From Candidatus Bathyarchaeia archaeon (GTDB taxonomy: Archaea; Thermoproteota; Bathyarchaeia; Bathyarchaeales; Bathycorpusculaceae), in the NCBI GenBank assembly GCA_050012755.1, contig JBEKGO010000025.1, positions 1-40,634 on the forward strand: a DNA stretch of 40,634 nucleotides. The letters are read 5' to 3'. The position numbers and the translations under genes are program-made. This document shows, one piece after another, positions 359-36,853 of this stretch. Position 1 is the stretch's first letter. Each line of letters starts with the position of its first letter. The notes under the pieces are model-generated. The model was given only the letters and a program-made list of their open reading frames with translations, had not been told where the DNA came from and ran no database searches.

Positions 359-492
359 AAACTACCGTCTCCCAAGTACTTTACCGCACAATTAAATATA
401 TAATTAACGGTGAAGCATGACGGAGAAAAACCTGTTTATCGTGAAACTTTAAATAAATATACGTAAGCTAACTAACTTGAGAGGGGAGTAAA

Positions 493-690
493 ACGCCTAA
501 AAAGGGCTACAAGAGCATAACCGTAAAAGCTGAGGTTTACGATTACTTCTTTAGAGAATGGCTCAAAGTTAAAGAGGAATACGTCATCAAGAAAGGCATT
601 CACAGTTTCTCAGCCTATGTTACCTTCACCTTAGCTGGACTGATGAACGAAGACAAGAAGTGCAAAACCGAAAGAGATATTCATAAATAA
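493..690 (+). CDS. 65-aa RHH-like small protein with probable ACG start (not in ORF track)
   Basis: (M)PKKGYKSITVKAEVYDYFFREWLKVKEEYVIKKGIHSFSAYVTFTLAGLMNEDKK...; GAGGGGAG at 481-488; in-frame TGA at 478-480 upstream; N-terminus resembles that of 221-358. Confidence 0.65.
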   Translation, partial: TPKKGYKSITVKAEVYDYFFREWLKVKEEYVIKKGIHSFSAYVTFTLAGLMNEDKKCKTERDIHK

Positions 691-936
691 AAAAGCCTAT
701 TTGGCTAATGACTACTTGAGAAAGTGCATTGGCACGGTTCTTCAAAAGCACCAATTATCAATGAAGGAATCGGATAGCTCACTAGTAATTTACCGTCCTC
801 GAACTTGGCCAAACTATTCTAAGGTTTTTTATTCCTCCAAAAATTCAACTTGGCCTACGCTTTCTTGCTGTTGTAGTTACCTAGCAGTCACATACAGTTA
901 TTTTATCAATTGCAGAACTAGTTATGGTTAGCTTTT

Positions 937-1932
937 ATGAACGACATTATTACGGTAAAGAATCTCGTTGAAGTTTATTCTGACGGCACCAAAGCCGTTG
1001 ACGACATCTCTTTTAGGGTGGCTGAAGGAGAATTCTTCGGTTTTCTTGGGCCTAACGGAGCGGGAAAAAGCACAACAATCAAGATTCTAACGACCCTTCT
1101 TAGAAAAACGTCGGGCTCGGTTACTATTGCAGGATACGACGTTGATAAACAAGCAGCCGCCATACGCAAGATCATCGGTGTTCAAAGCCAAGAAACAACC
1201 GTGGACGGTGACCTCGCTGGAAGAGAGAATATTACACTTCAAGGTCATTTTCACCAGATGAGCGGAGATGAAATCAAGAAAAGAGTAAACGAACTTTTGA
1301 TTCTCGTAGGTCTTGAAGACGCCGCCGAAAAACGCGCCAGAAACTACTCCGGCGGAATGAAAAAACGCCTTGACCTCGCCACTGCTTTAGTCCACAAGCC
1401 CAAACTCCTGTTCCTTGATGAACCAACCACTGGTTTGGATCCACAATCCCGATCGGCTATTTGGAGTTATTTGGAAAAATTAAACAAAGAAGAAGGAATA
1501 ACCATTTTTCTAACCACGCAGTACCTGGAAGAAGCCGACAAGCTATGTAAAAGACTTTCAATTATTGACGTTGGAAAAATAGTTGCAAGCGGCTCTCCCC
1601 TCGAGCTAAAACGTGAAATTGGCGCAGACTCTATAAGAGTCTCACTTGAAAACTGCAAAAAAGACAGCGCTAAAGCCAAAGAACTCATCGAATCAATGAC
1701 GGGCGTCGCTCAAATTGTGGATTCTGAAGAATGTCTCACTGTTTACGCAAAAAACGCCGGTCTGCTAATAGCTGATATCGTGCGTGCACTTGACAGCAGT
1801 GACATTCGACTTACATCAGTTACGTTTTCCTCGCCTTCACTTGATGATGTCTTTTTGAAACACACTGGCAAAAGAATCCGAGCTGAAGAACTCGTCAAGG
1901 CTCCCAGTAGAATGTTTGGAGGGAGGCGCTAA
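937..1932 (+). CDS. ABC-2 type (DrrA-like) exporter ATP-binding protein
   Basis: Walker A GPNGAGKST, signature YSGGM, Walker B LLFLDEPTTGLD, C-terminal SLDDVFL. Confidence 0.95.
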   Translation: MNDIITVKNLVEVYSDGTKAVDDISFRVAEGEFFGFLGPNGAGKSTTIKILTTLLRKTSGSVTIAGYDVDKQAAAIRKIIGVQSQETTVDGDLAGRENITLQGHFHQMSGDEIKKRVNELLILVGLEDAAEKRARNYSGGMKKRLDLATALVHKPKLLFLDEPTTGLDPQSRSAIWSYLEKLNKEEGITIFLTTQYLEEADKLCKRLSIIDVGKIVASGSPLELKREIGADSIRVSLENCKKDSAKAKELIESMTGVAQIVDSEECLTVYAKNAGLLIADIVRALDSSDIRLTSVTFSSPSLDDVFLKHTGKRIRAEELVKAPSRMFGGRR

Positions 1933-1934
1933 GA

Positions 1935-2708
1935 ATGACTTTGCTTTCTGATACCCGTTACATTTTCATTAGGTACATGACAAAACTTGTTCGAACTCCT
2001 ATTCTGCTTTTCTTTTCGCTCTTCCAACCCCTTCTGTTCCTTTTACTATTCACACAGTTGCTAGGCAGACTGGGCAATTTTCCAGGAGTGCTGCCTGCAG
2101 GAGTAAGCTATCTGGAGTTTGCTGCCGCGGGAATTTTGATGCAAAACGCTTTTGGAAGTGCATTGCAATCAGGAAACTCGATAGTTGCTGACATCGACTC
2201 TGGGTTTTTGCAGAAAATGCTTGTGACCCCTGTCAGTCGACCCGCGATTTTGCTGGGTAGGTTAAGTAGTGACGCCTTTAGAGTAGTTGTCCAAACCGCC
2301 ATAATTCTTGTCTTAGCATATGCATTAGGGGCCTATGTCAAAACTGGTGTCCTCGGAATTCTAGGTATCTTCTTTACGCTTGCATTCTTTGGGCTCGCGT
2401 GGTCAGGAATTTCTTTAGCGTTAGGCATGAAGACCAGAAGTTCTGAGACAGTTTTTGCCATAGGAGGAGTTATCACTTTTCCTTTGCTGTTCTTGAGCCC
2501 CGCGTTGTTCCCGATTAATTTCCTGCCATCCTGGGTGGGAACTGTCTCTATGTTTAACCCTGTGAGCTACGCTGTTAACGCCAGCAGGGCGTTTATGATT
2601 ACTGGCTACGATTGGGGCACGATACTGCCTGCTTGGGGGGTCATTGGGCTAGTGGCCGTAATAACAATGAGTGCAACATTGTATCAATTTAGAAAAGTAG
2701 TAAGCTAA
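1935..2708 (+). CDS. ABC-2 type exporter permease
   Basis: About six hydrophobic segments; 'G.L.KMLVTPVSR..ILLG' and 'NPVSYAVNA.R' ABC-2 motifs; 2 nt after the ATPase stop. Confidence 0.93.
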   Translation: MTLLSDTRYIFIRYMTKLVRTPILLFFSLFQPLLFLLLFTQLLGRLGNFPGVLPAGVSYLEFAAAGILMQNAFGSALQSGNSIVADIDSGFLQKMLVTPVSRPAILLGRLSSDAFRVVVQTAIILVLAYALGAYVKTGVLGILGIFFTLAFFGLAWSGISLALGMKTRSSETVFAIGGVITFPLLFLSPALFPINFLPSWVGTVSMFNPVSYAVNASRAFMITGYDWGTILPAWGVIGLVAVITMSATLYQFRKVVS

Positions 2709-2935
2709 GGGTAAATGTGCGCGTCAACATCCATCGGATTATGTAAGCGCGTAATTTTTGCTTCAATCAATTCTGATTCAGCATCGATTCCTTTCAGCGC
2801 TTTAGAAAACCCAGCCATGATGTTGCCAATGGTTTCTTGTACAAAATTGTTTAAAGGCAACTCTTTTCCATCTACGAACATTTTTGTGTCAAAAGATTTT
2901 TTCATTATTCTATGTTTTTCTCCCAATAAATTCAC
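2705..2935 (-). CDS. Small hypothetical protein resembling the C-terminal domain of archaeal MobB-like proteins (true start probably MKKSF)
   Basis: VDGKELPLNNFVQETIGNIMAGFSKALKG pattern recalled from such domains. Confidence 0.55.
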   Translation of the reverse strand: MNLLGEKHRIMKKSFDTKMFVDGKELPLNNFVQETIGNIMAGFSKALKGIDAESELIEAKITRLHNPMDVDAHIYP

Positions 2936-3135
2936 GAGCTAAAAATTTAATTCTAAAACTGATAAACCATTCGATAACAAGATATGCATGAGGAAACGCA
3001 AGCCACTATAGTTTATTGCCTTCGCGTATTGAGCTATATATTTTAATGCAAAAATATGGGAAAAAAAGCTTGCTTAAAGTAACAGCTAATATACTTGAAC
3101 AATCGATTTAGTTTGGACTTAACAAAAATTTACCT

Positions 3136-4845
3136 TTGGAAAAAAGGAGCGGCACTGTGCTTAGTAAACTATGGATCAAGCTCAATGCGTTGTCCTCGAA
3201 AAAGCCCTTAAAGTACACCCTCTATCTTTCTGCAATTATTATTTTCTTTGCTATAATTCTTATTCCACCCATAATCGGCATTTTAATTAAGGCACCGACA
3301 ATAGGCAACATCACCAGCCAACCTGCCTTAATGAACACGGCATTGGGCGCAATCTCAAACTCATTCACCATTGGCTTAATCGTCGCCGCTTTAGACCTCC
3401 TTGCGGGAGTGCCCTTAGCCTGGCTTATTACCCGTGGAAAATCAAGATGGCTAAGTGTCCTCGATACCTTGGCTGATTTACCATTTGTTGTTCCGACCGC
3501 CGCTTTAGGTTATTCGCTTCTGCTGTTTTGGAGTTCTGGCGGAGGCATATCCGCATTTTTTGGAGGACCACTTGTTTCCCCCGGTTGGTTGCTTGTGATG
3601 CTTTTGCATTTCACTTTTTCTTTCCCCGTGGTTGTCCGTATAATAGTTGGAGCAATGCTTGATTACAAGATGGAATATGAACGAGCGTCAAGAACACTTG
3701 GTGCTCCGCCGTTAACCGCTTCTAGAACCGTCACCTTTCCTATCACAAAGCCATCCCTAATTGCAGCGTTCTCTTTGGCATTCGCCCGGTCGCTCTCAGA
3801 AACGGGCGCAACGTTCATTGTGGCGGGCGCCGTCTTCATGAATGGCCCTGTTTTCTTACAAACAATTAGTAATGAGTTTAAAAAAGGCGCAATCCCCATA
3901 GGCACCTATGAAGGTGCTACTGTCTTTGCAAGCTTAATATTAATCGTTGTTTCGCTTAGCCTTTTTGCGTTAATACGTATTTTAGGGCAAAAAATAAAAT
4001 TGCCGTTTGGTCACGGCTTGCCCGTTATTGAGAAAAAAATCAGTTACAAAAAAGGGGCTTGGTCAAGAAACAGCATTGCATTATTTGTCTTTGTATTTTT
4101 AGTTTTGATACCTTCACTTTTTGTTGCTTTGCCAGCTTTCCAAGCAGTTGCTAATGGAACCCCGCTAATTCAGGCTTTAGCTGGAGCAGGTATATGGACA
4201 AGCTTCTGGCAAAGCTTGCTTTTATCTTATGTCTTAGCGGGCATTGTAACAGTCCTAGGCATTGTTCTTGGTATACCGATGGCAATACTGCTTGCGCGTA
4301 AAACATTTGGCAAATGGCCCTCAGCAATACTTGACTCATTAATCAATGTCCCTATCATCGTACCATCAATCGCCTTAGGCGTCTCCCTGAAATTTTTCTG
4401 GCAAGGGGTCCCCGGCATACCTGCTTTTCTGCTGTTGGTATTTGCCCACTTAGCCATTACCTACCCCTATTTTGTAAGGTCCATGTCTGCAGCAATGGAG
4501 AGAATAAGCGTAGATATGGAAGAAGCTGCAAAAACACTAGGAGCTAAACCTCTTACAGTTTTTAGATCAATTGTACTGCCACTCACGAAATACTCTATTC
4601 TTTCAGGAGCAATAATCGTTTTTACCAGAAGTGTAAGCGAAACAGGTGCAACGTTGGCTGTTTCTTCAAATTTGCAGACGGCGCCTGTGCTGATTGTCAA
4701 CTGGGTTAACTCTCTTAGAGGCGTTACAAAACCAATCATAGGGGTTAACTCATTAACGGTGGGTTTAGCTTGCGGCATTTTGATACTGCTAAGCTTCATA
4801 ATACTACTGGTTTTAAGGCTTTTAACTAGAAAAGGGAAGGTTTAG
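3136..4845 (+). CDS. ABC importer permease with two BPD_transp_1 domains (Fe3+/thiamine/oxyanion class)
   Basis: Two EAA loops (YERASRTLGA, MEEAAKTLGA), duplicated 'RSLSETGAT/RSVSETGAT', about 12 TM segments. Confidence 0.9.
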   Translation: MEKRSGTVLSKLWIKLNALSSKKPLKYTLYLSAIIIFFAIILIPPIIGILIKAPTIGNITSQPALMNTALGAISNSFTIGLIVAALDLLAGVPLAWLITRGKSRWLSVLDTLADLPFVVPTAALGYSLLLFWSSGGGISAFFGGPLVSPGWLLVMLLHFTFSFPVVVRIIVGAMLDYKMEYERASRTLGAPPLTASRTVTFPITKPSLIAAFSLAFARSLSETGATFIVAGAVFMNGPVFLQTISNEFKKGAIPIGTYEGATVFASLILIVVSLSLFALIRILGQKIKLPFGHGLPVIEKKISYKKGAWSRNSIALFVFVFLVLIPSLFVALPAFQAVANGTPLIQALAGAGIWTSFWQSLLLSYVLAGIVTVLGIVLGIPMAILLARKTFGKWPSAILDSLINVPIIVPSIALGVSLKFFWQGVPGIPAFLLLVFAHLAITYPYFVRSMSAAMERISVDMEEAAKTLGAKPLTVFRSIVLPLTKYSILSGAIIVFTRSVSETGATLAVSSNLQTAPVLIVNWVNSLRGVTKPIIGVNSLTVGLACGILILLSFIILLVLRLLTRKGKV

Positions 4846-4895
4846 AATGATAACTAATAAATGCATTAAAACAGCATCAATTGGAGAGTTAACTT

Positions 4896-5993
4896 ATGCC
4901 TGATATCCGAGTCGTAAACTTGACAAAAAAATACGGAAAAATATGCGCTTTGGACAATGTTAGCTTAACCATAAAAGACAAAGAGTACTTCTCACTGCTT
5001 GGACCAAGCGGCTGCGGCAAAACAACCCTTCTGCGTCTTATAGCTGGGCTTATTGAACCTGACAGCGGCGAAATCTACATTGGGGACCGACGGGTAGACA
5101 AAGATCCACCTGAAGACCGAGACGTCGGTTTTGTATTCCAAACCTTTGCCCTTTTCCCGCATATGACCGCCTGGGGCAACGTAATTTACGGTCCAAAAGT
5201 GAAGAATTACGACCAGAAACAAGCTGACACCATTGGGCACGAAGTTTTAGAGCTTGTAAAACTTAACGAACGCTTGACCGCTTATCCCAGTGAACTTAGT
5301 GGTGGCATGATGCAAAGAATAGCTGTTGCCCGAGCGTTGGCTGCAGGCGCCAAAACGCTGCTTTTAGATGAGCCGTTAGGTCAGTTGGACGCAAAGGTTC
5401 GAAATGAAATTAGGTATGAAATTCGAAGAATGGCTAAAGACCTCAAACTGACGGCAATTCATGTAACGCACGATCAGGCCGAAGCAATGTCAATTTCAGA
5501 TAGGATTGCAGTTATGAAAAATGGAAAAATCGTTCAAATTGGCAGTCCACAAGAATTATACATGCATCCGAACAGCTTGTTTGTTGCTCACTTCATCGGT
5601 GAATCCAACTTTTTAGAAGGCTACATTACCAAGACAAATGGCTATTCTGAATTAGAGTTACGTGGCGGATTAAAAATTAAAGCCCAAAACACTGAAATAA
5701 AAGAGGGCGAAAGAATAGTTTTAGCGATAAGACCTGAAACATGCGAAATGAGAACCGGGCATGTCTCCACCGAAAACGCGTTGTTTGGGAAAATTGATAA
5801 AGTGACTTTTGAAGGAACTTTCGTCCGCTATGAAATCAGGCTTGAAAATGGCGACCGCTTAGTAATAAACAGGCCCTCCCTAACTGAAGAATGGGTTGAA
5901 ATCGGACAAGAAGTAACTATCACTTATCCACTTGAGAAGGCTCATATTTTTGCGTATCCAGAAGCGGGTTTAACTGAGGAGATCTCAGTCTAA
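4896..5993 (+). CDS. ABC importer ATP-binding protein (PotA/FbpC-like, C-terminal TOBE-like domain)
   Basis: GPSGCGKTT, VFQ..ALFPHM, LSGGMMQR, LLDEP, HVTHDQAEA. Confidence 0.93.
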   Translation: MPDIRVVNLTKKYGKICALDNVSLTIKDKEYFSLLGPSGCGKTTLLRLIAGLIEPDSGEIYIGDRRVDKDPPEDRDVGFVFQTFALFPHMTAWGNVIYGPKVKNYDQKQADTIGHEVLELVKLNERLTAYPSELSGGMMQRIAVARALAAGAKTLLLDEPLGQLDAKVRNEIRYEIRRMAKDLKLTAIHVTHDQAEAMSISDRIAVMKNGKIVQIGSPQELYMHPNSLFVAHFIGESNFLEGYITKTNGYSELELRGGLKIKAQNTEIKEGERIVLAIRPETCEMRTGHVSTENALFGKIDKVTFEGTFVRYEIRLENGDRLVINRPSLTEEWVEIGQEVTITYPLEKAHIFAYPEAGLTEEISV

Positions 5994-6115
5994 TTTTACT
6001 TGCAATCATCTTTTCATTTTTACGTTAATTCTTAATTAACGATGGACTTCGCAATATTTTTGTTCTTAATATTTAAATCCAAGAATGTTGCTTTGGAAAT
6101 TAAGCTCGGGGTAGT

Positions 6116-6364
6116 ATGGGAGAAGAGATAGCGGAACAAGATAGTATAGTCAGCGATCATGGTGATAGCATTTACTTGAGATCAGATAGCCATCCAACAG
6201 CTAACTGCAAGATTGTTTGTTTGCAGATGTTTTATTCAGATAACCTTATATTCGTTCACGAATACGCTTTTGGTTATAACAAATCCAAATCTGACTCTAC
6301 TCTTGATGTAGATTTAATGATTAAAAACAAAAGCATTAATGGAGAAGTATCGTATGTTTGTTGA
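6116..6364 (+). CDS. Hypothetical 82-aa protein upstream of hydrogenase cluster
   Basis: ATG preceded by GGGGT; AT-rich TATA-like sequence upstream; no recognisable motif. Confidence 0.4.
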   Translation: MGEEIAEQDSIVSDHGDSIYLRSDSHPTANCKIVCLQMFYSDNLIFVHEYAFGYNKSKSDSTLDVDLMIKNKSINGEVSYVC

Positions 6365-6498
6365 AGCCCTTATTGCGGTTACGTCAACATTCCTATTAAC
6401 ATTAGCGATTAACACTTTGGGCAAAAAGTCTTTAATGTTACTCTCTCATCTTGGGCGTTCACTTGCCTTGGACAAGTTCTTTTAAGAGGAGATAATAC

Positions 6499-7068
6499 AT
6501 GATGGCAAACGTAGTAACATGGGCTCGTGTAAAATCTCCGTGGGTCATACACTTCAACTCAGGCGCCTGCAACGGATGCGACATTGAAATAGTAGCATTG
6601 CTGACACCAAAATATGACGTCGAACGCTTCGGCGTTAAACTTGAGCCCTCACCCAGGCATGCTGATGTTTTACTGGTAACGGGCGGTGTCACAAAACAAT
6701 GCGAAGAACGACTAAAACGGATATACGACCAAATGCCACAACCCAAATTTGTTGTTGCAATCGGCGCATGTGCATGCTCAGGCGGGGTGTTCGCAGGATG
6801 CTACAACGTCGTCGGCGGCGTAGATAAGGTGATTCCAGTTAATGCATATATTCCTGGCTGTCCGCCACGCCCAGAAGCACTTTTGGATGGAGTAGTTAAG
6901 CTTCTGAATGCCTTAGATCCGCCTAAACCAAAAAAACAAGCGAAACAACCTCAATTGCCCAAAGAAGAGCCAAAGGCTGAGGCTATAAAACCAGAAGCAG
7001 CTACCCCCCAAGAGGTTAAACAAATTGTTAATGAGGAAAAACCAAATGTCAAACAGCAACAAGATTGA
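6499..7068 (+). CDS. Group 4 [NiFe] hydrogenase small subunit (NuoB/EchC-like)
   Basis: GACNGCDIE, PRHADVLLVTG, IGACACSGG, YIPGCPPRPEA; Pro/Lys/Glu-rich tail. Confidence 0.93.
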   Translation: MMANVVTWARVKSPWVIHFNSGACNGCDIEIVALLTPKYDVERFGVKLEPSPRHADVLLVTGGVTKQCEERLKRIYDQMPQPKFVVAIGACACSGGVFAGCYNVVGGVDKVIPVNAYIPGCPPRPEALLDGVVKLLNALDPPKPKKQAKQPQLPKEEPKAEAIKPEAATPQEVKQIVNEEKPNVKQQQD

Positions 7069-8620
7069 TATTATTAGCGTAATTGAATCAAAAGTTCAAT
7101 CCAAGATCCAAATCCAAATGGGACAGCTTGGTAAGGCTGCAATAATTACCAGTAATGGCTCACACAGAGACGTTATCAAAGCCATGGTGGAGGCTGATGA
7201 AAAAACTGCAGTTTCCGCCATAACCGGTCTTGATCTTGGTCAAAACCTGGGCATCCTCTATCATATTCGCACCTCCAATGCTTTCATAACGATAAGAGCT
7301 GAGGTCTCAAAAGAAAACCCGAAAATTGCAACTATTGTAGACTTAATGCCAGGCGCAACTTTTCACGAATTAGAGGTAGCGGATTTATTTGGTGTAATTT
7401 TCGAAGGGAACACCCTCTCCGGTCATTTCGTTTTAACCGAAGATTGGCCTGAAGGCGTTTATCCACTTAGAAAAGACGTTAACGCAAACGAAGTTAAACT
7501 TAATCCTGCAAAAAACGTCGAAAAAAATTCAGAAAATGATAATGTTGTCAAAATTATTATTGGTCCTCAACACCCTGCGTTATTGGAACCGGAAAAATTT
7601 GCAGTTACAGTCGAAGGCGAAATCGTAACTAAAGTCGAACCTCGCATTGGTTATGTACATAGAGGAATCGAGAAGGCGTCTGAGTCACGCAGTTACGTGC
7701 AAGATGTTTACTTAGTTGAAAGAATATGCGGTATATGCAACTCTATTCACGCAGCAAGTTTTGTTGAAACTGTAGAAAAAATATTGAAAACCGACGTTCC
7801 GCCAAGAGCTAAATACTTACGAACAATAACTTTAGAACTAAACAGATTGCACAGTCACTTGCTAACTTTAGGGCATGCATGCTTAGAAATAGGATATGAT
7901 ACCATGTTCCAATATTTCTGGCGTGACCGCGAACCCATAATGGACCTTATTGAACTAACAAGCGGCAACCGAGTTTATTCCTCAATAATGACGGTGGGCG
8001 GCGTAAGACGCGACTTAAAAGAAACAGACATTCCAAAAATCAAAAATACCTTAGCTGATTTGAGAACAAAAATACCCTTCTACAAACACACCTACGAAAC
8101 CAATTCATCCATAAAATTACGCATGCAAAACGTTGGCACATTATCAAGGCAAGATGCCTTGAAACTCAATGTAGTAGGCCCTGTTGCAAGAGGTTCAGGC
8201 GTAGACATAGACGTACGCAAGGATGAACCTTACGAAGCTTATGGCGAAATTCCATTCAAAGAAATAACCTACACCGAAGGCGACTCATGGGCTCGCATGA
8301 ATGTTCGCATGGATGAAATTGAAGAAAGCATCAAAATTATCGAATATGCACTTGACCATTTGCCGAGCGGACCATATAGAGTTAAGGCGCCTAGAATTGT
8401 TCCTGCAGGCGAAGCAGTTAATCGAGTTGAAGCACCAAGAGGCGAGCTTTTCTACTATGTAAAAAGCAACGGGACAGCCAATCCAGAACGCGTTAAAGTC
8501 CGCACACCAACCTTCGCAAACATTCCCGCATTCCTCAAAACAGCAATTGGAGAAAACCTTGCTGATGTCCCCCCGAACTTTGTCAGTTTAGATCCTTGTT
8601 TCTCATGTACAGATAGATAA
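7046..8620 (+). CDS. Group 4 [NiFe] hydrogenase large subunit, NuoC-NuoD-type fusion
   Basis: N-terminal NuoC-like domain (E.ADLFG..F.G, YPLRKD); GPQHP, HRGIEK; L1 RICGIC and L2 DPCFSCTDR*; ATG at 7046 with GAGGA upstream preferred over TTG at 7025. Confidence 0.93.
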   Translation: MSNSNKIDIISVIESKVQSKIQIQMGQLGKAAIITSNGSHRDVIKAMVEADEKTAVSAITGLDLGQNLGILYHIRTSNAFITIRAEVSKENPKIATIVDLMPGATFHELEVADLFGVIFEGNTLSGHFVLTEDWPEGVYPLRKDVNANEVKLNPAKNVEKNSENDNVVKIIIGPQHPALLEPEKFAVTVEGEIVTKVEPRIGYVHRGIEKASESRSYVQDVYLVERICGICNSIHAASFVETVEKILKTDVPPRAKYLRTITLELNRLHSHLLTLGHACLEIGYDTMFQYFWRDREPIMDLIELTSGNRVYSSIMTVGGVRRDLKETDIPKIKNTLADLRTKIPFYKHTYETNSSIKLRMQNVGTLSRQDALKLNVVGPVARGSGVDIDVRKDEPYEAYGEIPFKEITYTEGDSWARMNVRMDEIEESIKIIEYALDHLPSGPYRVKAPRIVPAGEAVNRVEAPRGELFYYVKSNGTANPERVKVRTPTFANIPAFLKTAIGENLADVPPNFVSLDPCFSCTDR

Positions 8621-8632
8621 AGGTGAAAATAT

Positions 8633-9028
8633 ATAGCGAATAAAAAAAGAGCTTCATCTTCCAACATAGCAAGACGGGCATTTTCATCCATCTTTAAAAA
8701 ATCAGCGACTCAAAAATACCCCTTTGTAAAGGCTTCCGTGGCTGATGGCTTTCGAGGTAAACAAATATTTGACATTGAAAAATGCATAAGCTGTGGATTA
8801 TGTTCCAAAGATTGCCCCGCAAATGCCATAGAAATGATCGATGTTGAAGGCAAAAAAAGACCCCTTTTTCATTTGGACAGATGCGTTTTCTGCTATCAAT
8901 GCGCCGACACTTGCCCCAAGAAAGCGATTCAACCAACTTCGATATTTGAACTAGCCTGTATTGATAAAAAAACGCTTGAGCTGAGACCTCAACCACTACA
9001 GGCCTCAGTAAAACAACCAACTTCGTAA
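8633..9028 (+). CDS. 2x[4Fe-4S] subunit (NuoI/EchF-like); N-terminus extends to a probable ATA start at 8633
   Basis: CISCGLCSKDCP and CVFCYQCADTCP; the in-frame stretch FKKSATQKYPF...GFRG (NuoI-type N-terminal motif) begins upstream of the track's GTG at 8738. Confidence 0.88.
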   Translation: MANKKRASSSNIARRAFSSIFKKSATQKYPFVKASVADGFRGKQIFDIEKCISCGLCSKDCPANAIEMIDVEGKKRPLFHLDRCVFCYQCADTCPKKAIQPTSIFELACIDKKTLELRPQPLQASVKQPTS

Positions 9029-9163
9029 ATTCTTTGTTTCCTGAGGATTTCACATTTTGGCCATCAATTTCTTACTGCCATTTTCAACTAGTTAAGATTA
9101 TTTAATAAAAACAAAATGTTTGGTTATGAAAAAAATTTGGAGTATAACGTAGGTAGTTGCTAA

Positions 9164-10114
9164 CTATACGCCTATTCCAGCCAGTATGAGAACTATCTGC
9201 AGAATTGCTAGCGGTAGTAGATATCTCCACATTCCTGAAATTGATTGGTCCAAACGTAAGCGTGCAAATATGGCTCTGAGGAATGAAATCAGTAGAACCA
9301 CCGCGATTGTTTTAATGATGAAAAACACTGCTGCGGGAATGAATGCTATTTGCTGTATTCCGCCCAAGTAAAGGGCTGCTATTAACCCTGATGCTAGAAT
9401 TAGCTCTAGATTTCTTCCAAGTCTGAACATAGCTAGTTTTTTGCCGCTGTATTCAGTTAGCCATCCTGCAACAACTTCTGATTCCGCTTCAGGAATGTTG
9501 AAGGGCGCAGTCTCAAGTTCGGCGAGAAAACAGACTACTAGTACCGCAAACCCTATTGGTTGAAGAAAAATCGTCCAGGTTGCTGTGTTTTGCCAATTTG
9601 AAATGGTACTTATTGAAAGACTTTGTGCTGCGATCGCTGGGCCAATTAATGCTAAAGCCATTGGAATTTCAAAACTCATCATTTGAAGTATTGCACGTAC
9701 TCCTCCAATGATGCTGTATCTATTCATTGAACTCCAACCAGCAAGGAATACGGTGATAATCATCAACGTGAAAACAAACAAAACCAGTAATAAATCTCCT
9801 TCAAAAGCCACGATAGCCGAGCCTGCAATGGGTAAAACAAATAATGCAGTCAATGGTAATGCGAGGTAAATGATTGGTGCAGCTGAAAAAATAAATTTGT
9901 CACATACCATCGGAACAATGTCTTCTTTTGAGAGTAATTTAACGAAGTCAGCAACGGGCTGAAAAAGACCTGCTGGGCCAGTATGCAGAGGGCCATACCT
10001 GTTCTGCACTTTAGCATACAATTTCCTGTCTATCCATTCATAGAAGAAAGCTAACACCAAGAGGAACAATATGCCTGGGAAAATAAGGATCTGAAGTATA
10101 TCAAGTGCAATCAT
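9164..10114 (-). CDS. NuoH/FpoH-like membrane subunit
   Basis: DRKLYAKVQNRYGP, GLFQPVADFVKLLSKE, PFNIPEAESEVVAGWLTEYSG, RLRLDQ. Confidence 0.94.
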   Translation of the reverse strand: MIALDILQILIFPGILFLLVLAFFYEWIDRKLYAKVQNRYGPLHTGPAGLFQPVADFVKLLSKEDIVPMVCDKFIFSAAPIIYLALPLTALFVLPIAGSAIVAFEGDLLLVLFVFTLMIITVFLAGWSSMNRYSIIGGVRAILQMMSFEIPMALALIGPAIAAQSLSISTISNWQNTATWTIFLQPIGFAVLVVCFLAELETAPFNIPEAESEVVAGWLTEYSGKKLAMFRLGRNLELILASGLIAALYLGGIQQIAFIPAAVFFIIKTIAVVLLISFLRAIFARLRLDQSISGMWRYLLPLAILQIVLILAGIGV

Positions 10115-10243
10115 TGTTTTGTCTCCCCTCTGAAACCCTTGTTAACTCTTAACGCTCTTTTAATATTATCTTTATCGGATTAACGATTGAGAATAATAAA
10201 AACCCTGTGGTATATTTATAAAAAATATTTTTGGTGAGGTGAC

Positions 10244-10582
10244 TTAGAGTCGTTTTCTGCCGAAAACAAGCATGGCAACTGACATCAAAACAATCAAAGC
10301 GTAAACAATCGGCATTAATCCAATAGTAAAAAATGCGGTCACCATCATAAATGCGAAGATATCGAAAATAAGGAAATAAACTGCAAACGTAAGGAATCTT
10401 TCGAGACCAATCTTTACTTCCTCAAGAGGCGTGTCTTCTCCGCAAGCATAAGGTGCAGTTTTTCCAGGCAAATTTTGGGTGCCTTTTGCTGAGATTTTTC
10501 CCCCAATCAGATAGATAACCACGGCTACTATTAATGAAACTCCGAATACTAAAGGTAGAATCAAAGGGATGTCGCTGATCAT
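10244..10582 (-). CDS. NuoA/FpoA-like membrane subunit
   Basis: PYACGE loop, FAVYFLIFD; three TM segments. Confidence 0.85.
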   Translation of the reverse strand: MISDIPLILPLVFGVSLIVAVVIYLIGGKISAKGTQNLPGKTAPYACGEDTPLEEVKIGLERFLTFAVYFLIFDIFAFMMVTAFFTIGLMPIVYALIVLMSVAMLVFGRKRL

Positions 10583-10642
10583 TTTTGCCCCTTCACCTAA
10601 AGATTTTAAAGCAACCTATTAAACCCTTCTTATAATTATTAA

Positions 10643-10912
10643 ATGGGAGACGGGGTAAGGACGCTAGAAGAAGTGCTACAATATGTTCTGATGATTGCAA
10701 CACTCATTTTAGCAATTTCAGCAATTGAACTGAAAAATCTTTTGCACGCAGCGATTTCTTTCTGCGGAATGTGCATTATGATCGGGGCGCTCTTTTGGCT
10801 TTTGGATGCTCCCTATGCCGCTGTTTTTCAAATTCTTGTTTATGCAGGTGCCGTTGTAACAATTTTTCTTGCAGCTGTAATGTTGACAACACGCAAGGAG
10901 AGCATAAGATAA
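10643..10912 (+). CDS. NuoJ N-terminal half (FpoJ1-like)
   Basis: NLLHAAISF, LDAPYAAVFQILVYAGAV. Confidence 0.88.
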   Translation: MGDGVRTLEEVLQYVLMIATLILAISAIELKNLLHAAISFCGMCIMIGALFWLLDAPYAAVFQILVYAGAVVTIFLAAVMLTTRKESIR

Positions 10913-10913
10913 C

Positions 10914-11192
10914 ATGAAAATTAATATCATAATAATTGTCGGCATTTTGTTTGCCTTATTGGCCCTGGCTGTTTTTACGTTGGTCGCCACGCAGAATCCT
11001 TTCCCAGCATTCAAATATGCCACACAAACCGACCACTATGTAAGCGTCACACAAAATATTGGTCCTGAAGACAGCCGCTTTTTGTGGACCAACAATACCT
11101 TGAACTTAGTCGCACAAGCCTTCGTCCTTTTTGCCGCTGCGACTGCAACTCTTGCTTTGTTAAACACTAACAAATCAGAGGAATCTGAATGA
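10914..11192 (+). CDS. NuoJ C-terminal half (FpoJ2-like)
   Basis: Two TM segments flanking 'IG..DSRFLW'; lies between J1 and K. Confidence 0.7.
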   Translation: MKINIIIIVGILFALLALAVFTLVATQNPFPAFKYATQTDHYVSVTQNIGPEDSRFLWTNNTLNLVAQAFVLFAAATATLALLNTNKSEESE

Positions 11193-11503
11193 TTGATTTA
11201 ACTTTCTATCTAATTTTTTCCATTGCGCTCTACATGGTTGGACTATATAGTCTAGCAACAAAGCGCAATATGCTCAGACTCGTCTTAGGAATTGAAATGA
11301 TCATAAACGCAGCAAACATTAACTTCGTTACACTCGCAGCTTACGCGATGCCAGGTTTTGTAGACCCATTGGGCAATTCTTTCGTTTGCATTTCAATAGG
11401 TTTAGCTGGAGCAGTAAGCGCAGTTGCTCTTGCAATTGTGATCACAGCCTATAGACTCTACGGAACTCTGGATGTGGACGAATTAAGGCGTCTCAGGGGT
11501 TAA
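11189..11503 (+). CDS. NuoK/FpoK (MrpC-related) subunit
   Basis: RNMLRLVLGIEMIINAANINFV; C-terminal YRLYGTLDVDELRRLRG; ATGA overlap with J2. Confidence 0.92.
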   Translation: MIDLTFYLIFSIALYMVGLYSLATKRNMLRLVLGIEMIINAANINFVTLAAYAMPGFVDPLGNSFVCISIGLAGAVSAVALAIVITAYRLYGTLDVDELRRLRG

Positions 11504-11518
11504 AGGAGGAACAATCGA

Positions 11519-12985
11519 ATGTTTACTCTGCCACTTGACATACTTCTTGTTTTCACTGCTGTGTCACCAGTTATAGGTTGGGTAACTCCAAAACTTTACA
11601 GAGCAAAACTGGCAGGAGCTTTTGCTGCAACAGCGCTGGCAGTAACAGGCATTGCCCTATACAGCCTCTACCAAACCGTTTCCAGCACCGGTCCAATCTA
11701 CTTACCGAGTAATTCTCTGATTGGCGCCCATCTAAAAGTTGACATGCTGAGCATCTTTATGACGACTATCTTTCTGGGATTAGGGTTAGCTGCAACCGTT
11801 TATTCAATTATTTACGTTGAGAAAAGTCGAAGGGCACCGATGTACTACACATTAATTCTAACAATGATAAGCGGTATGATTGGTATTGTTTTCTCAGGCG
11901 ACTTGTTTACGCTATTTGTTTTCTGGGAACTAATGTCCATTTCAACGTACGCCCTCGTTTCTTTCTACAGGGAAAAATGGGCTTCGATGGAGGCAGGCAT
12001 AAAATACCTAATTATGAGTGCTGCTGGCTCTGCCACCGCGCTTTTTGGGATCTCCCTTCTATATGGTATGACCGGAACGTTGAGTTTCGAAGGACTCGCA
12101 ACCGCGTTTAACGCCGCAACACCGAATACTTGGTTGTACGTTGCAGCCCTATTCATCTTTGTGGGATTTGGAGTAAAAGCTGCTGTTGTTCCTCTTCACA
12201 CTTGGGTGCCTGACGCATATTCTTCAGCTCCAGCGCCGATAACTGCAATGCTTTCAGGCATCGTAATTGGACCAGGAATTTATGTTATTGCTCGCACATT
12301 CTTTTCGGCTTTTCTATCGATTCAGGCACAGTGGATGCCGATTGCCGCGATTTTAAGCTTCATAACGATGATTGTTGGAAACATCACTGCACTTCTTCAA
12401 ACGGACCTGAAAAGAATGCTTGCCTACTCGAGCATTGCACAAGTTGGATACATGCTAGTTGGCTTAGCCGTGGGAACTCAAACGGGGTTGACAGGAACCT
12501 TTCTACAGTTCTTTAATCACGGCTTAATGAAAGGTCTCGCTTTCCTCTGTGCAGGCGCAATCATATTCAGATTAGGCGCAAGAGAGTTGCAGGACATGGT
12601 TGGAGTAGGTCGTAAGATGCCTGTTACAGGAATTGTTTTTTCAATATCTCTTTTCGCTTTGATTGGAATTCCTCCCTTTAATGGCTTCATCAGCGAACTA
12701 ACTCTTTTCACATCGACTTTCCAAGTGAACTTGGCTTGGCTAGGTATTGCGTTAATCGTGAACAGTGCCATATCTGCAGCCTATTATCTGCGTGTGGTAC
12801 GAACAATAATGCAGATACCTGTTTCAGAAAATGTTCAAAAAGTTAAGGAAGTGCCCTTGCTCATGCTTATTCCACTTTGCGTTCTTGCTGCCTCATTAAT
12901 TGTATTCGGCCTCTGGCCTGACCCATTAGTTAACTTCGCCAATCAAGCTGCAAAAGCACTTGTGTCCTTCGGAGGTCTGATTTAA
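11519..12985 (+). CDS. Antiporter-like subunit (NuoN/MrpD-like)
   Basis: FVFWELMS, EAGIKYL, VKAAVVPLHTWVPDAY, KRMLAYSSIAQVGY. Confidence 0.92.
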   Translation: MFTLPLDILLVFTAVSPVIGWVTPKLYRAKLAGAFAATALAVTGIALYSLYQTVSSTGPIYLPSNSLIGAHLKVDMLSIFMTTIFLGLGLAATVYSIIYVEKSRRAPMYYTLILTMISGMIGIVFSGDLFTLFVFWELMSISTYALVSFYREKWASMEAGIKYLIMSAAGSATALFGISLLYGMTGTLSFEGLATAFNAATPNTWLYVAALFIFVGFGVKAAVVPLHTWVPDAYSSAPAPITAMLSGIVIGPGIYVIARTFFSAFLSIQAQWMPIAAILSFITMIVGNITALLQTDLKRMLAYSSIAQVGYMLVGLAVGTQTGLTGTFLQFFNHGLMKGLAFLCAGAIIFRLGARELQDMVGVGRKMPVTGIVFSISLFALIGIPPFNGFISELTLFTSTFQVNLAWLGIALIVNSAISAAYYLRVVRTIMQIPVSENVQKVKEVPLLMLIPLCVLAASLIVFGLWPDPLVNFANQAAKALVSFGGLI

Positions 12986-15061
12986 ACGATATTCACTGAT
13001 TTTATTCCTTGGCTCTGCTGGATATTTCCCATAATTGGCGCTCTATCAGCGTTGATCCTGAACAAAGTCAATCGACAAGTTATGGACATAACAGTCATCG
13101 TTCTGGCAGCGCTAGGCTGGGTAATGGCACTTCTCCTAATTCCCAATTTATTGAACTACAACTACATTGACAAAACGGCTTTTTGGTTTTCCCTTGGAGG
13201 CGGCAAATCGATTGGCATAGGCATGCTGATAGACCCTTTGAGCATAATTATGATTAACGTAGTAGCATTCTTGGGTTTGCTTATTGTAATTTATTCAAAG
13301 AAATACATGGCAGACGATGCCAACGCAAGCCGATTCTGGTTTTTCATGTCGCTTTTCATCGGTTCCATGCTGCTCGTGGTGTTGGCTGATAACCTCATTT
13401 TAATGTTTGTCGGATGGAAACTAGTTGGCTTATGCAGTTTTGGATTAATCGGCTACTACTACCAAGACAAAAAAGAACACTGGATTGGTGGGCCTCCTCC
13501 TACTCCATTCGTGAAACCCTCTAGAGCTGCGTTGAAAGCCTTGTTAGTTACAACCTTAGGTGATATGGCTTTATTAGCGGGCATAATAATCATTTACCTA
13601 TACGCTGGCACCTTCAACTTTCTACAGATACTTCAAACTGCAGGCACATGGCTACCTGCAATGGCATTGACACCTGGAATGTTAGCATTAACATGTGTGC
13701 TACTCCTACTCGGCCCATTTGCAAAGTCCGCGCAGTTCCCATTTCATGAATGGCTGCCCGAGGCAATGGCTGGTCCAACTCCAGTTTCAGCACTCATCCA
13801 TGCGGCAACCATGGTTAAAGCAGGAGTCTACCTGATTGCCCGTTTACTACCAATCTTTTTCTTCGCCGCATGGATTGCTACTCCAGCATATCCAGAAGCT
13901 CTAACATTCTTCATAGTTGCCGCAATCATAGGCGCATTTACCGCTTTCATGGCTGGCACACAAGCGATTGTTGGCAAGGAACTAAAGAAAGTATTAGCCT
14001 ATTCCACAATGAGTTCTATTGGATATATGATTCTTGCTTTGGGTATAGCCGGCTTGAGCTCAACCACTTTGGTTGCAGGAACGGCTTCTGGAATCTTCTT
14101 CTTAATCAACCACGGCATTTTCAAAGTCATCTTATTCCTCTGCGCAGGTATCATCATACATGCTTCTGGTTCAATTTACCTCTCGGACATGAAACTTTCA
14201 AGACAAAAAATGCGTTACACATGGGCTTTCATGTGGATAGGTACATTAGCACTTGTCGGTGTACCACTATTCTCCGGGTTTTGGAGCAAAGACAGCGTAC
14301 TTGCCGCTACATGGACAAGCGGTCAATACGCATTATTTGCCGTTGCACTGTTAACTGTAATTCTGACATCATTCTACGCATTTCGCATGATGGGCATGAT
14401 CTTCCATAGCGGCAAAAGCACTGGACCTACCCAGCCTGAAATCGAGGACCACGAAGATGCTGCCAAACATGAACATGGCGAAGCAAGCTGGATTATGCTC
14501 ATACCAATCGGCATCTTAGCCGCTTTGACAGTTATCATAGGCTTTGCCGGTCAATGGGTGAGTGATTTCCTAACAAATGCTTTTAATAAATATTTCATCG
14601 GCACACTCCACCTCGTCGCCAGTAACAGTGTAGCTTCCACCTCAGCTCTTTCTGGTTTAGGACTAGAAATTGTAGTTGCAGTGGCGTCAACTCTCATGAT
14701 TATAGTGGGTGCTTATCCCGCATACAGGCTATACGTCCAACACAAATCAAACCCCGAAAATATCGTTGGCAAAAGCCGAGGTTTACAGAATATCTACAAG
14801 TTCCTTTGGAACCGATGGTACATCGACGCCTTCTACAACAAAGTTTTCGTTAACACCACACTTGCAATCAGAGAACCATTGAAACGATACATTGAATCAC
14901 CACTTGACCAAGCATTAAACAACGGTATCCCAAGAATTTTCAATGGACTCAGTAAACAATTCAAGAAAATCCAAACAGGAATACTCTCAGTGAACATGCT
15001 GTACTTCTTGATATTTCTAGTAATTGCCCTACTAGTTTTGTGGCTAGGAGGATTTCTATAA
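12986..15061 (+). CDS. Antiporter-like subunit NuoL/FpoL; N-terminus extends to a probable ACG (or ATA) start at 12986
   Basis: AKSAQFPFHEWLPEAMAGPTPVSALIHAATMV, SGFWSKD, WYIDAFY; in-frame TM1 'PWLCWIFPIIGAL' lies upstream of the track's TTG at 13052. Confidence 0.92.
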   Translation, partial: TIFTDFIPWLCWIFPIIGALSALILNKVNRQVMDITVIVLAALGWVMALLLIPNLLNYNYIDKTAFWFSLGGGKSIGIGMLIDPLSIIMINVVAFLGLLIVIYSKKYMADDANASRFWFFMSLFIGSMLLVVLADNLILMFVGWKLVGLCSFGLIGYYYQDKKEHWIGGPPPTPFVKPSRAALKALLVTTLGDMALLAGIIIIYLYAGTFNFLQILQTAGTWLPAMALTPGMLALTCVLLLLGPFAKSAQFPFHEWLPEAMAGPTPVSALIHAATMVKAGVYLIARLLPIFFFAAWIATPAYPEALTFFIVAAIIGAFTAFMAGTQAIVGKELKKVLAYSTMSSIGYMILALGIAGLSSTTLVAGTASGIFFLINHGIFKVILFLCAGIIIHASGSIYLSDMKLSRQKMRYTWAFMWIGTLALVGVPLFSGFWSKDSVLAATWTSGQYALFAVALLTVILTSFYAFRMMGMIFHSGKSTGPTQPEIEDHEDAAKHEHGEASWIMLIPIGILAALTVIIGFAGQWVSDFLTNAFNKYFIGTLHLVASNSVASTSALSGLGLEIVVAVASTLMIIVGAYPAYRLYVQHKSNPENIVGKSRGLQNIYKFLWNRWYIDAFYNKVFVNTTLAIREPLKRYIESPLDQALNNGIPRIFNGLSKQFKKIQTGILSVNMLYFLIFLVIALLVLWLGGFL

Positions 15062-16543
15062 ATGCAAATTCCATACATCCTACTTCAAATTATTATCGCA
15101 CCACTTATCGGAGCACTCGCCTGTGCTTTCCTAGGCAAGAAGCTTAAGAAAAACTTGGGTTGGGTTGCCGCAGCCGCAATGCTCTACACAACTATTCTAT
15201 TATTTCTTGTCGCAGTTCAATTATGGGTTCAAGGCGGCTCAGTTACTGAAATTTATCAATGGGGCACAGTAGTCTTCAGTTTGAAATTTGGTTTTCTAGC
15301 GGACGGATTGTCCCTGCCCGTTGCACTTGTTATGAGCATCATTTGCACCGCCATCGCAATTTACTCGATCAATTACATGGATCACAGAATAGAAACTATG
15401 TATGGTAGAGAAAAACCTCAAATGTTCTCAATGTATTATTCGCTTTTTCTGCTTTTTCCAGTTGGACTAATCGGTGCAGCCTTGTCCACTAATTTAATTG
15501 AACTTTTCCTGTTTATTGAGGCGGCTCTTATCCCATCTTACGTTCTTTTGGATCTCTTCGGGTACGTTGATAGGCATAGAGTCGCGATGATGTCATTCAT
15601 TTGGACTCAAGCCGGCGCCGCAGTTTACTTAACAGGAGCCATATTAGCCTCAACCGGAACAGGCAGCTTCGACGTAAGTTCTCTGTCAGTTTTATCTGGG
15701 ACATCGCTTGGGTTCTGGGTATGCCTACTGATACTCATAGGCTTTCTGATAAAAATGGCAACTTTTGGCTTCCACGTTTGGTTACCTTATGTGGAAGGAG
15801 AACACGCAACATCTATCGCTTCTATCCTTGCGGCGTTCGTGGGCTTAGGTGCCTACATAATTGTGCGATTACTTTACGGCCAGCTTCTCACATCTTTCGA
15901 AGTCTTTAGCATTCCTCTGATGATATTAGCTGTAATTACTATGATTTACGGTGCTTATCTTACAATGGCACAGGACGATGTCAAACGGTTGTTTGCCTGC
16001 TCAACTATAAGTCAAACAGCCTACTCAATACTTGGAATCGCGAGCATGACAGCTCTTGGTGTTTCGGGTGGAGTCTTCTATTTCATGAGCCACATTCTTG
16101 GCAAAGCTATCTTATTCTCCGTTGCAGGAATCCTTGTTACTCAAACAGGCGTTAGAAACATAAAAGAAATGGGTGGACTGGCACAGAAAATGCCGTTAAC
16201 AGCAACACTTTGCATAATTGGCGCGATGGTTCTCTCAGGGATTCCGCCTCTGAGCGGGTTCCAAGCCGAATGGGTTATGTTTGTCGGAATATTTTCACGA
16301 GGAACCACATCTATGGTGTACTTGGCAATTGCAATAGTCGCCATCTTCGCCACTTTCTTAACCTCGGTTTACACATTCTGGCCTGCCATCCGAATTTTCT
16401 TCGGCCCCTCAAAACCAGAGATGGAAAATGTTAAAGAAGCACCCAAAACAATGACCATTCCACTTCTTGCACTTGCCATCATATCTTTGTTAATAGGCCT
16501 GTTTCCGGATATTATAATGCACTTTTTGACATCCGTAATCTAA
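15062..16543 (+). CDS. Antiporter-like subunit NuoM/FpoM
   Basis: GFLADGLSLP, IKMATFGFHVWLP, GGLAQKMP, GIPPLSGFQAE. Confidence 0.92.
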   Translation: MQIPYILLQIIIAPLIGALACAFLGKKLKKNLGWVAAAAMLYTTILLFLVAVQLWVQGGSVTEIYQWGTVVFSLKFGFLADGLSLPVALVMSIICTAIAIYSINYMDHRIETMYGREKPQMFSMYYSLFLLFPVGLIGAALSTNLIELFLFIEAALIPSYVLLDLFGYVDRHRVAMMSFIWTQAGAAVYLTGAILASTGTGSFDVSSLSVLSGTSLGFWVCLLILIGFLIKMATFGFHVWLPYVEGEHATSIASILAAFVGLGAYIIVRLLYGQLLTSFEVFSIPLMILAVITMIYGAYLTMAQDDVKRLFACSTISQTAYSILGIASMTALGVSGGVFYFMSHILGKAILFSVAGILVTQTGVRNIKEMGGLAQKMPLTATLCIIGAMVLSGIPPLSGFQAEWVMFVGIFSRGTTSMVYLAIAIVAIFATFLTSVYTFWPAIRIFFGPSKPEMENVKEAPKTMTIPLLALAIISLLIGLFPDIIMHFLTSVI

Positions 16544-16638
16544 AGGCTCTTCTGTTCTCCTTTTTGAATAATCTAAAATCACATTATTCTCAGTTACATA
16601 TTTAATACCCGAACGCCATTAATCATCTGGGGCTAATA

Positions 16639-36631: not shown

Positions 36632-36853
36632 CCAAGAATATTCTTTTAGTTTCGATATTTCCGCTCCGCTCCTTTCTAGTCAAAATTAGTTTGTCCATAA
36701 GCGGTGATTAGTTAATTAAAACTTTCTTAATTGTTCAATGCAGTTATCGATTGGATACTTTATCCGAAACAATCCGAAACACTTCAATTTATTTATTCAA
36801 TAAAGTAATCTGCGGAAAAGAACAAGCATTAAATTTGGCAATTTCTACTTATT

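Follow-up and report, generated by a model that had tools for sequence, protein, structure and literature searches.

Probable ACG, ATA and CTG translation starts behind Shine-Dalgarno motifs in an order of Bathyarchaeia

In a Candidatus Bathyarchaeia archaeon of the order Bathyarchaeales, a number of genes appear to start at the near-cognate codons ACG, ATA and CTG behind Shine-Dalgarno (SD) motifs, and from comparison of genomes we put the probability that these are real translation starts, used at least throughout the order, at about 0.75. Three of the genes concerned lie in the window, by which we mean the whole stretch of DNA that was analysed, the entire contig C25 of 40,634 bases (GenBank assembly GCA_050012755.1, contig JBEKGO010000025.1) in a draft genome of 2.41 Mb, 65 contigs and a G+C content of 0.42 (G000). 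One is a small conserved gene and the other two encode a NuoI-like and a NuoL-like subunit in a hydrogenase operon.

Three sites in the window

The three candidate starts and their surroundings, all on the forward strand, are the following.

443..459: promoter-like element, GAAAC plus TTTAAATAAATA, about 40 nucleotides (nt) upstream of the small-gene ACG; an 'aaacctta(t/a)ataaa' block lies at equal distance in homologous loci
481..488: SD-like motif GAGGGGAG, 4 nt before ACG 493; the GAGGG(G)A motif is kept in homologues
493..690: small conserved gene, 65 amino acids, ACG start (493-495), open frame to TAA 688-690
7025..8620: fused NuoC/NuoD-like large subunit (Pfam Complex1_30kDa, Complex1_49kDa, NiFeSe_Hases)
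8620..8626: SD AAGGTGA, containing the in-frame stop TGA 8624-8626
8633..9028: NuoI/FpoI-like subunit with two [4Fe-4S] clusters, ATA start (8633-8635); NCBIfam NuoI, FpoI and hydrogenase iron-sulfur subunit, Pfam Fer4
11519..12985: antiporter-like subunit of the NuoN/M type (Pfam Proton_antipo_M)
12971..12976: SD GGAGGT, 9 nt before ACG 12986
12986..15061: NuoL-like antiporter subunit, ACG start (12986-12988); NCBIfam NuoL, residues 9-686 matching profile positions 6-610 of 615

A sequence-only reading of the window had singled out these three codons, and its description of them held: each frame is closed upstream by an in-frame stop, offers no ATG, GTG or TTG before the conserved N-terminus and carries an SD near the usual spacing of the genome. 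For the small gene, the upstream stop is TGA 478-480 and the sole canonical codon is ATG 643, residue 51 of 65. The NuoI-like gene begins behind the stop of the large subunit, which lies 13 nt before ATA 8633, and its first canonical codon, GTG 8738, is located past a conserved T-x-K-Y-P segment. In the NuoL-like gene, ACG 12986 is directly abutted by TAA 12983-12985 of the antiporter-like gene, which is in the same frame, and no canonical codon occurs before TTG 13052 at residue 23. According to the NCBIfam profiles, both hydrogenase genes encode conserved protein upstream of the first canonical codon; in the stop-to-stop frame, the match to the NuoI/FpoI profiles sets in at residues 16-19.

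The 16S rRNA of the genome ends with GGATCACCTCCT, and the GAGG core of GAGGGGAG is complementary to its 3' end CCTCC. Before ATG starts in G000, GGTGA most often begins at position -11 and GGAGG at -14/-13; at the three sites, GGTGA begins at -11 (ATA 8633), GGAGG at -15 (ACG 12986) and GAGG at -12 (ACG 493). Two neighbouring codons were set aside as starts on SD spacing and alignment, namely ATA 8666 for the NuoI-like gene and ATA 12989 for the NuoL-like gene, for which GGAGG would sit at -18, outside the usual range. Readthrough of the stop codon that separates the antiporter-like subunit from NuoL was likewise rejected, because orthologues of the same layout have their own ATG or TTG. The element at 443..459 may act as an archaeal transcription factor B recognition element (BRE) and TATA box, judging from its resemblance to such elements.

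A search of sequencing runs found the stretch in peat and wetland metagenomes. At the hydrogenase sites, contigs of two of these runs (X2, pieces 8000-8975 and 12686-13480; X3, pieces 8059-9431 and 12697-13486) show 0 differences from the window, which answers the concern that the two codons might be sequence errors; both runs belong to other samples and studies, possibly from one sampling campaign. A further run (X4) is without coverage of 8368-8735, and another (X5) holds a relative that is about 94% alike over 11711-13500.

Genome-wide excess, individual genes and relatives

Whether the lineage has relaxed start selection was assessed on 2,592 open reading frames (ORFs) of G000, selected by codon-usage score as crude gene models. 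The codons tested lay after the upstream in-frame stop and at least six codons before the first ATG, GTG or TTG, and an SD was counted where at least five contiguous matches to AGGAGGTGATC occurred at the usual distance. Over all codons, 191 of 13,234 (1.44%) had such an SD. The individual codons gave these counts.

ACG: 13/121 at the right spacing, 7.4-fold (binomial p = 2.7e-8); 2/121 (1.0-fold) in the wrong-spacing control
CTG: 7/117 at the right spacing, 4.1-fold; 3/117 in the wrong-spacing control
ATA: 15/425 at the right spacing, 2.4-fold; 4/425 in the wrong-spacing control
Other codons at the right spacing: AAG 0/365, AGG 1/165, ATT 4/408, ATC 4/272
ACG deep inside genes, as a second control: 91/4,388, 0.9-fold

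Both controls were thus flat for ACG, and the highest value reached by a codon that is not near-cognate was 3.1%. The excess of ACG and ATA starts that the sequence-only reading had proposed to look for in a genome-wide survey is therefore present, and CTG joins them; as a lower bound, the SD-anchored excess corresponds to about 25 genes in G000. Near-cognate starts are not confined to translationally coupled genes: 12 of 35 near-cognate candidates have the end of an upstream gene on the same strand in the interval -40..+20 nt, and so do 127 of 345 canonical SD-led starts. The accompanying statement that many genes start with TTG is plausible, since TTG is the first canonical codon in 759 of 2,570 crude gene models, and an SD of at least 5 nt precedes 12.3% of the TTG-first models compared to 15.7% of the ATG-first models.

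Twelve G000 candidates were translated from the near-cognate codon and compared to Pfam. In ten of them the domain begins upstream of the first canonical codon, and one had no Pfam match. Each line below gives two residue numbers, that at which the domain match begins and that of the first canonical codon.

UvrD helicase: 8 / 37
HflX: 14 / 52
HTH_24 (helix-turn-helix of Lrp type): 8 / 43
Response regulator: 3 / 19
Argininosuccinate synthase (ArgG): 4 / 101
PIN: 3 / 52
Ribosomal protein S11 (uS11): 13 / 43
Cupin: 40 / 81
PIN_9: 13 / 20
FMN reductase: 1 / 12
ABC ATPase (marginal): 26 / 28

Two related genomes were included in the comparison, a sister species of the same genus (G013, of which 1.6 of 2.68 Mb were examined) and a member of another family of the order (G040, 0.8 of 2.15 Mb). 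Between G000 and the sister species, several genes have exchanged a near-cognate for a canonical codon: ATA/ATG in ArgG and in a PIN protein, ACG/ATG in a zinc-ribbon protein, CTG/TTG in uS11 and ATT/ATG in the FMN reductase. The reverse exchange was found in an amidotransferase (ATG/ACG) and Lon protease (ATG/CTG), and ACG is present in both species in hflX and in two genes of contig C29, one of which begins TYKSLEVMGPEHEF. Together with the excess behind SD motifs and the Pfam domain starts, these exchanges support the earlier proposal that the lineage tolerates near-cognate starts. Mapping gene starts onto the first canonical codon of the orthologue was too noisy for a general count, as spurious upstream canonical codons are common. 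The ATA at 36658 of the window (minus strand, window 36631-36679, behind AAGGAG) was rejected as a start, since the homologues in G040 and G013 begin at ATG 36631.

Three further genes deserve a remark of their own. The ATA start of ArgG (C17:32277-32330) is overlapped by the TAA of a five-codon mini-ORF in another frame (ATG AGG GAG CAA CAA TAA), which may be there by chance or may act as a feeder for termination-reinitiation. At C16:43299 (minus strand), a gene for a KH-domain (NusA-like) protein has an out-of-frame ATG just upstream of a run of seven A, and one extra A restores the frame, as in the sister species; frameshifting, transcriptional slippage or a homopolymer error could apply here instead of a CTG start. 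A TRAM-like small gene (TFSPKKRAPRNAK..., C9:45230 and G013:C1 at about 1,318,077) lacks a canonical start over 30-42 codons in either species, with a stop directly before ACT in the sister species and a conserved run of seven A in codons 4-7.

In the sister species, ACG again ranked first in the SD-anchored test (6/126, 3.3-fold). In the other family the counts were 3/29 for ACG, 3/36 for CTG and 5/126 for ATA, compared to 0/29, 1/36 and 1/126 at the wrong spacing, and Pfam placed the domain start upstream of the first canonical codon in 4 of 4 cases examined there, namely a protein of the ornithine cyclodeaminase/mu-crystallin family (ACG), a flavodoxin (CTG, immediately behind a stop), Alba (CTG) and an AsnC-type helix-turn-helix regulator (ATA).

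For hflX, 30 loci of the genus and of seven other families were compared: 28 start with ACG, preceded by a conserved GGAGG, and the two others show ATT and ACC, in no case ATG. In a class-wide draw, ACG was found in 6 of 7 loci of the same order, while 19 of 21 loci of other orders have ATG, GTG or TTG at the aligned start or at most six codons upstream of it. The remaining two, both from one family, have ACG behind GGAGG and no canonical codon. On the best reading of these comparisons, the trait would be at least order-wide. The hflX ACG (C8:9698, locus L272; loci L273-L329) lies within the 3' end of the upstream gene, whose conserved stop TAG follows the ACG after about 14 nt. Another family of the Bathyarchaeia (loci L313, L314, L316 and L317) has CTG at the aligned start of hflX, with GGTG(A/G) 6 nt before it; this SD itself contains a GTG in frame, three codons upstream of the CTG, which leaves the true start of these four genes ambiguous.

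The small gene and the hydrogenase operon

Aligning the 5' ends of orthologues, as had been suggested, separated the three genes of the window: the non-canonical codon is conserved in the small gene, as it is in hflX, and is conserved in neither hydrogenase subunit. The NuoL-like protein has six orthologues with 61-68% identity, in which the codon aligned to ACG 12986 is ATG in four and TTG in one, and the sixth has ATG one codon before it. The three closest orthologues of the NuoI-like gene are syntenic, each following a large-subunit gene that stops after ...SCTDR; L033 has ATG at the codon aligned to ATA 8633, in L035 the ATG comes one codon later, and L032 has TTG two codons later. Because the closest orthologues have ATG or TTG at or near the aligned codon, ATA 8633 and ACG 12986 are species-specific single transitions, ATG>ATA and ATG>ACG, and on this alignment the two codons look like tolerated drift. 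The idea that weak starts in two subunits of one complex tune their stoichiometry found no support, because neither codon is conserved in the orthologues.

Homologues of the small gene occur in 17 of 41 genomes searched, all within the genus and often in several copies. In a first set of 20 loci including that of the window, the aligned first codon was ACG in 19 and ATG in the other. A wider set from species-representative genomes comprised 79 loci, a further one at a contig edge being left out, with ACG in 73, ATG in 4, TTG in 1 and GCG in 1. In some copies a stop immediately precedes the ACG. The codons after the ACG vary at the third position, which shows selection on the protein and that the stretch is read as protein.

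The small protein had no match in Pfam or NCBIfam and only weak look-alikes, at 0.92, in the ESM Atlas, one of them a DUF3950 cluster. AlphaFold2 predicts a two-helix hairpin (mean predicted local distance difference test score, pLDDT, 81.6). In 49 of 75 loci (from L071-L150), the small ACG-start gene is located just upstream of a gene whose predicted product begins like adenylosuccinate synthetase. In these loci the small gene lies downstream of two conserved small genes for a Cys-rich and an Sm-like protein. The copy in the window is a paralogue at the contig end and adjoins an ABC-2 transporter (937-2708).

The operon that holds ATA 8633 and ACG 12986 contains, according to Pfam, genes for subunits B, fused C/D, I, H, J and K and for three antiporter-like subunits; a candidate for subunit A and a second J-like ORF had no Pfam match. 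Three further genes of the region are the following.

9164-10114: H subunit, on the opposite strand in mid-cluster
10244-10582: possible A subunit, on the opposite strand in mid-cluster, no Pfam match
16639-18147: FrhB/FpoF-like gene; two CBS domains, one 4Fe-4S domain

The translated large subunit contains CGICNSIH and DPCFSCTDR. Loh, Herve and Brune (2021, PMC7886697) described Hfo, an Fpo-like [NiFe] hydrogenase of 11 subunits, in Bathyarchaeia of the Bathy-6 group. With Hfo, the complex-I-like operon at 6499-18147 shares the Nuo/Fpo subunit set, and CGICNSIH and DPCFSCTDR fit the L1 and L2 [NiFe] ligand motifs as quoted from that paper. It differs in the FrhB/FpoF-like gene that follows the cluster, whereas the same paper states that the FpoFO module is absent. 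By its sequence, the operon is classed as an Hfo-type [NiFe] hydrogenase.

Proposed mechanism, alternatives and known systems

On SD-led mRNAs, the duplex of SD and anti-SD would position the small subunit (30S), and the ordinary initiator Met-tRNA (anticodon CAU) could then pair with ACG, AUA or CUG through a single mismatch, so that the protein would begin with Met. If such starts work well enough, changes of the types ATG>ACG, ATG>ATA and TTG>CTG could survive in housekeeping genes, with turnover from one species to the next and with the two hydrogenase genes as examples, and some genes could keep ACG under selection as a weak start. The ACG conserved in hflX across the order and in the small gene across the genus is probably such a selected weak start. 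Decoding by the initiator tRNA (Met-tRNAi), the efficiency of the starts and the rationale of a weak start are inferred; what is observed directly is the codons and their SD context, their alignment to canonical starts of orthologues, the genome-wide excess and the conservation.

The two parts of the translation machinery that were compared provided no explanation. The sequence-only reading had named archaeal initiation factor 1 (aIF1), aIF2 and the initiator tRNA as places to look for substitutions, and in aIF1 and the initiator tRNA none was found that could account for the trait. The initiator tRNA is ordinary, with A1:U72, three G:C pairs in the anticodon stem and the anticodon CAU. Initiator features are absent from all those of the 48 predicted tRNAs that have a different anticodon; apart from the initiator, A is the first nucleotide only in tRNA-Gln. 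aIF1 is present, is 102 residues long and can be aligned over its whole length with the solved aIF1 of Methanocaldococcus.

Several points weigh against the proposed reading of these codons as starts. Among 30 Bathyarchaeia sequences of aIF1 no order-specific substitution was found, and nothing examined in aIF1 or the initiator tRNA accounts as yet for a lower stringency. The gene models are crude and the SD-anchored list includes false positives; the extension from one listed ACG, C8:37657(-), looks non-coding. Homology extending at least 10 amino acids upstream of the first canonical codon was found in 35 of 955 genes of G000 and 37 of 939 genes of the sister species, and these orthologue-based rates are upper bounds that include antisense frames and conserved leaders. 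In the sister species, ATA (3/305) and CTG (2/146) were not enriched. The bulk test covers three genomes, all of one order, and the trait may extend beyond this lineage. ATA 8633 and ACG 12986 were seen in no other relative examined and could be mildly deleterious. In 15 of the 73 small-gene loci with ACG, an in-frame ATG, GTG or TTG occurs upstream with no intervening stop; it sits between the TATA-like block and the SD, and we infer that it lies outside the transcript. Finally, no RNA runs were among those listed for positions 8000-13500 of the window.

The strongest alternative, still an improbable one, concerns the hydrogenase genes only: both would have lost their start codons recently, and the losses would be tolerated rather than used, with very low expression or expression by termination-reinitiation in an operon that is possibly decaying. 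It agrees with the lack of conservation of ATA and ACG, with the ATG or TTG of the orthologues at or near the aligned codon, with the position of both sites right behind an upstream stop (TAA abutting ACG 12986, and ATA 8633 13 nt after a stop) and with the occurrence of two changed start codons within one operon. However, neither frame is interrupted over its 131 or 691 codons, both products match their family profiles from one end to the other, and both genes keep an SD at modal spacing. Essential genes of G000 are similarly changed, including those for ArgG and for uS11, in which the first canonical codon comes only at residue 43, and coupling to an upstream gene is no more frequent among near-cognate candidates than among canonical SD-led starts.

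Much less probable is the restoration of the start on the mRNA by RNA editing, by analogy with organelles, through C-to-U changes (ACG to AUG, CUG to UUG) and A-to-I changes (AUA to AUG). ACG is the classic edited start in organelles, and editing of ACG to AUG starts occurs in plant organelles. Each of the three enriched codons is one transition away from a canonical start, and ACG is by far the most enriched of them. Nevertheless, editing would need two different chemistries, the surroundings of the 13 ACG sites share no motif besides the SD, and near-cognate decoding requires no added machinery. A search for the DYW-type deaminase (PF14432) gave no match in G000, nor in any of 14 control genomes, and is thus a weak test. 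If editing did occur, it would be the first system of start-codon editing on mRNAs in archaea, analogous to that of plant organelles.

Marginally less probable again is that translation of the three window genes starts at the downstream canonical codons (ATG 643, GTG 8738 and TTG 13052), which are present in all three frames, and that the conserved stretch before them is an untranslated leader. The stretches that would be skipped show synonymous variation and conservation at the protein level, and they align to family profiles. Truncation would cost NuoL most of its first transmembrane helix, NuoI its conserved N-terminal segment and the small protein 50 of its 65 residues. SD matches before the downstream codons are weak (2-3 nt), and the same logic applied to ArgG deletes 100 residues including the nucleotide-binding motif. 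A sequencing or assembly error at the three codons, conceivable in a metagenome-assembled draft, has a negligible chance given the identity of the X2 and X3 contigs over both hydrogenase sites, with the caveat of their possibly shared sampling campaign, and the recurrence of ACG in independently assembled small-gene (73/79) and hflX (28/30) loci.

In sediments, peat and soil, Bathyarchaeia belong to the most abundant uncultured archaea, and all knowledge of them comes from metagenome-assembled genomes, annotated with gene callers for which only ATG, GTG and TTG count as starts. If ACG, ATA or CTG is the start of about 1-4% of their genes, enzymes, ribosomal proteins and regulators would be systematically truncated, mis-started or dropped in annotations, and metabolic reconstructions as well as protein databases would be distorted. 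The warning that gene callers truncate or miss such genes is supported; Prodigal, according to its description, considers only ATG, GTG and TTG as starts (PMC2848648). A prokaryote that routinely starts at ACG or CUG on SD-led mRNAs would also be a natural system for the study of start-codon stringency, and it could show the origin of the near-cognate hierarchy of eukaryotes, as archaeal initiation uses homologues of eIF1, eIF1A and eIF2. We did not find a paper describing these starts in the literature searched, which did not extend to subscription journals.

In Escherichia coli, ACG was reported to support 0.1-1% of the initiation at AUG, and AUA, AUC, AUU and CUG 1-2%, with only two confirmed non-canonical starts given in the same source (bioRxiv 10.1101/063800). 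The AUU starts of infC and pcnB resemble the present cases in the combination of a conserved weak start with an SD and in the involvement of a translation-linked gene, infC there and hflX here. Unlike in E. coli, ACG is the leading codon here, no enrichment was seen for AUU or AUC, and the number of genes concerned runs into dozens; the fidelity factor is aIF1 instead of IF3. Among archaea, aIF1 of Sulfolobus was found to discriminate against AUU (PMC4705826), and in Haloferax volcanii about 30% of the alternative initiation sites defined with harringtonine were near-cognate (PMC7261190). H. volcanii is likewise an archaeon with near-cognate initiation sites, but these are alternative sites, which its authors put aside since they might be false positives, and are not the sole starts of conserved genes; in addition, its mRNAs are mostly leaderless.

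For eukaryotes, the near-cognate codons were ranked in the order CUG, GUG, ACG, AUU (PMC5666671). Eukaryotes and their viruses agree with the present genomes in that CUG and ACG are good starts and AAG and AGG essentially unused, and further in initiation with Met-tRNAi, which is presumed for the archaeal genes, and in the homologous factor pairs aIF1/eIF1, aIF2/eIF2 and aIF1A/eIF1A. In contrast to the eukaryotic situation, the mRNAs considered here are SD-led or polycistronic and are not scanned, AUA is enriched as well, and the near-cognate codon would be the only start of housekeeping genes rather than that of upstream open reading frames or N-terminal extensions.

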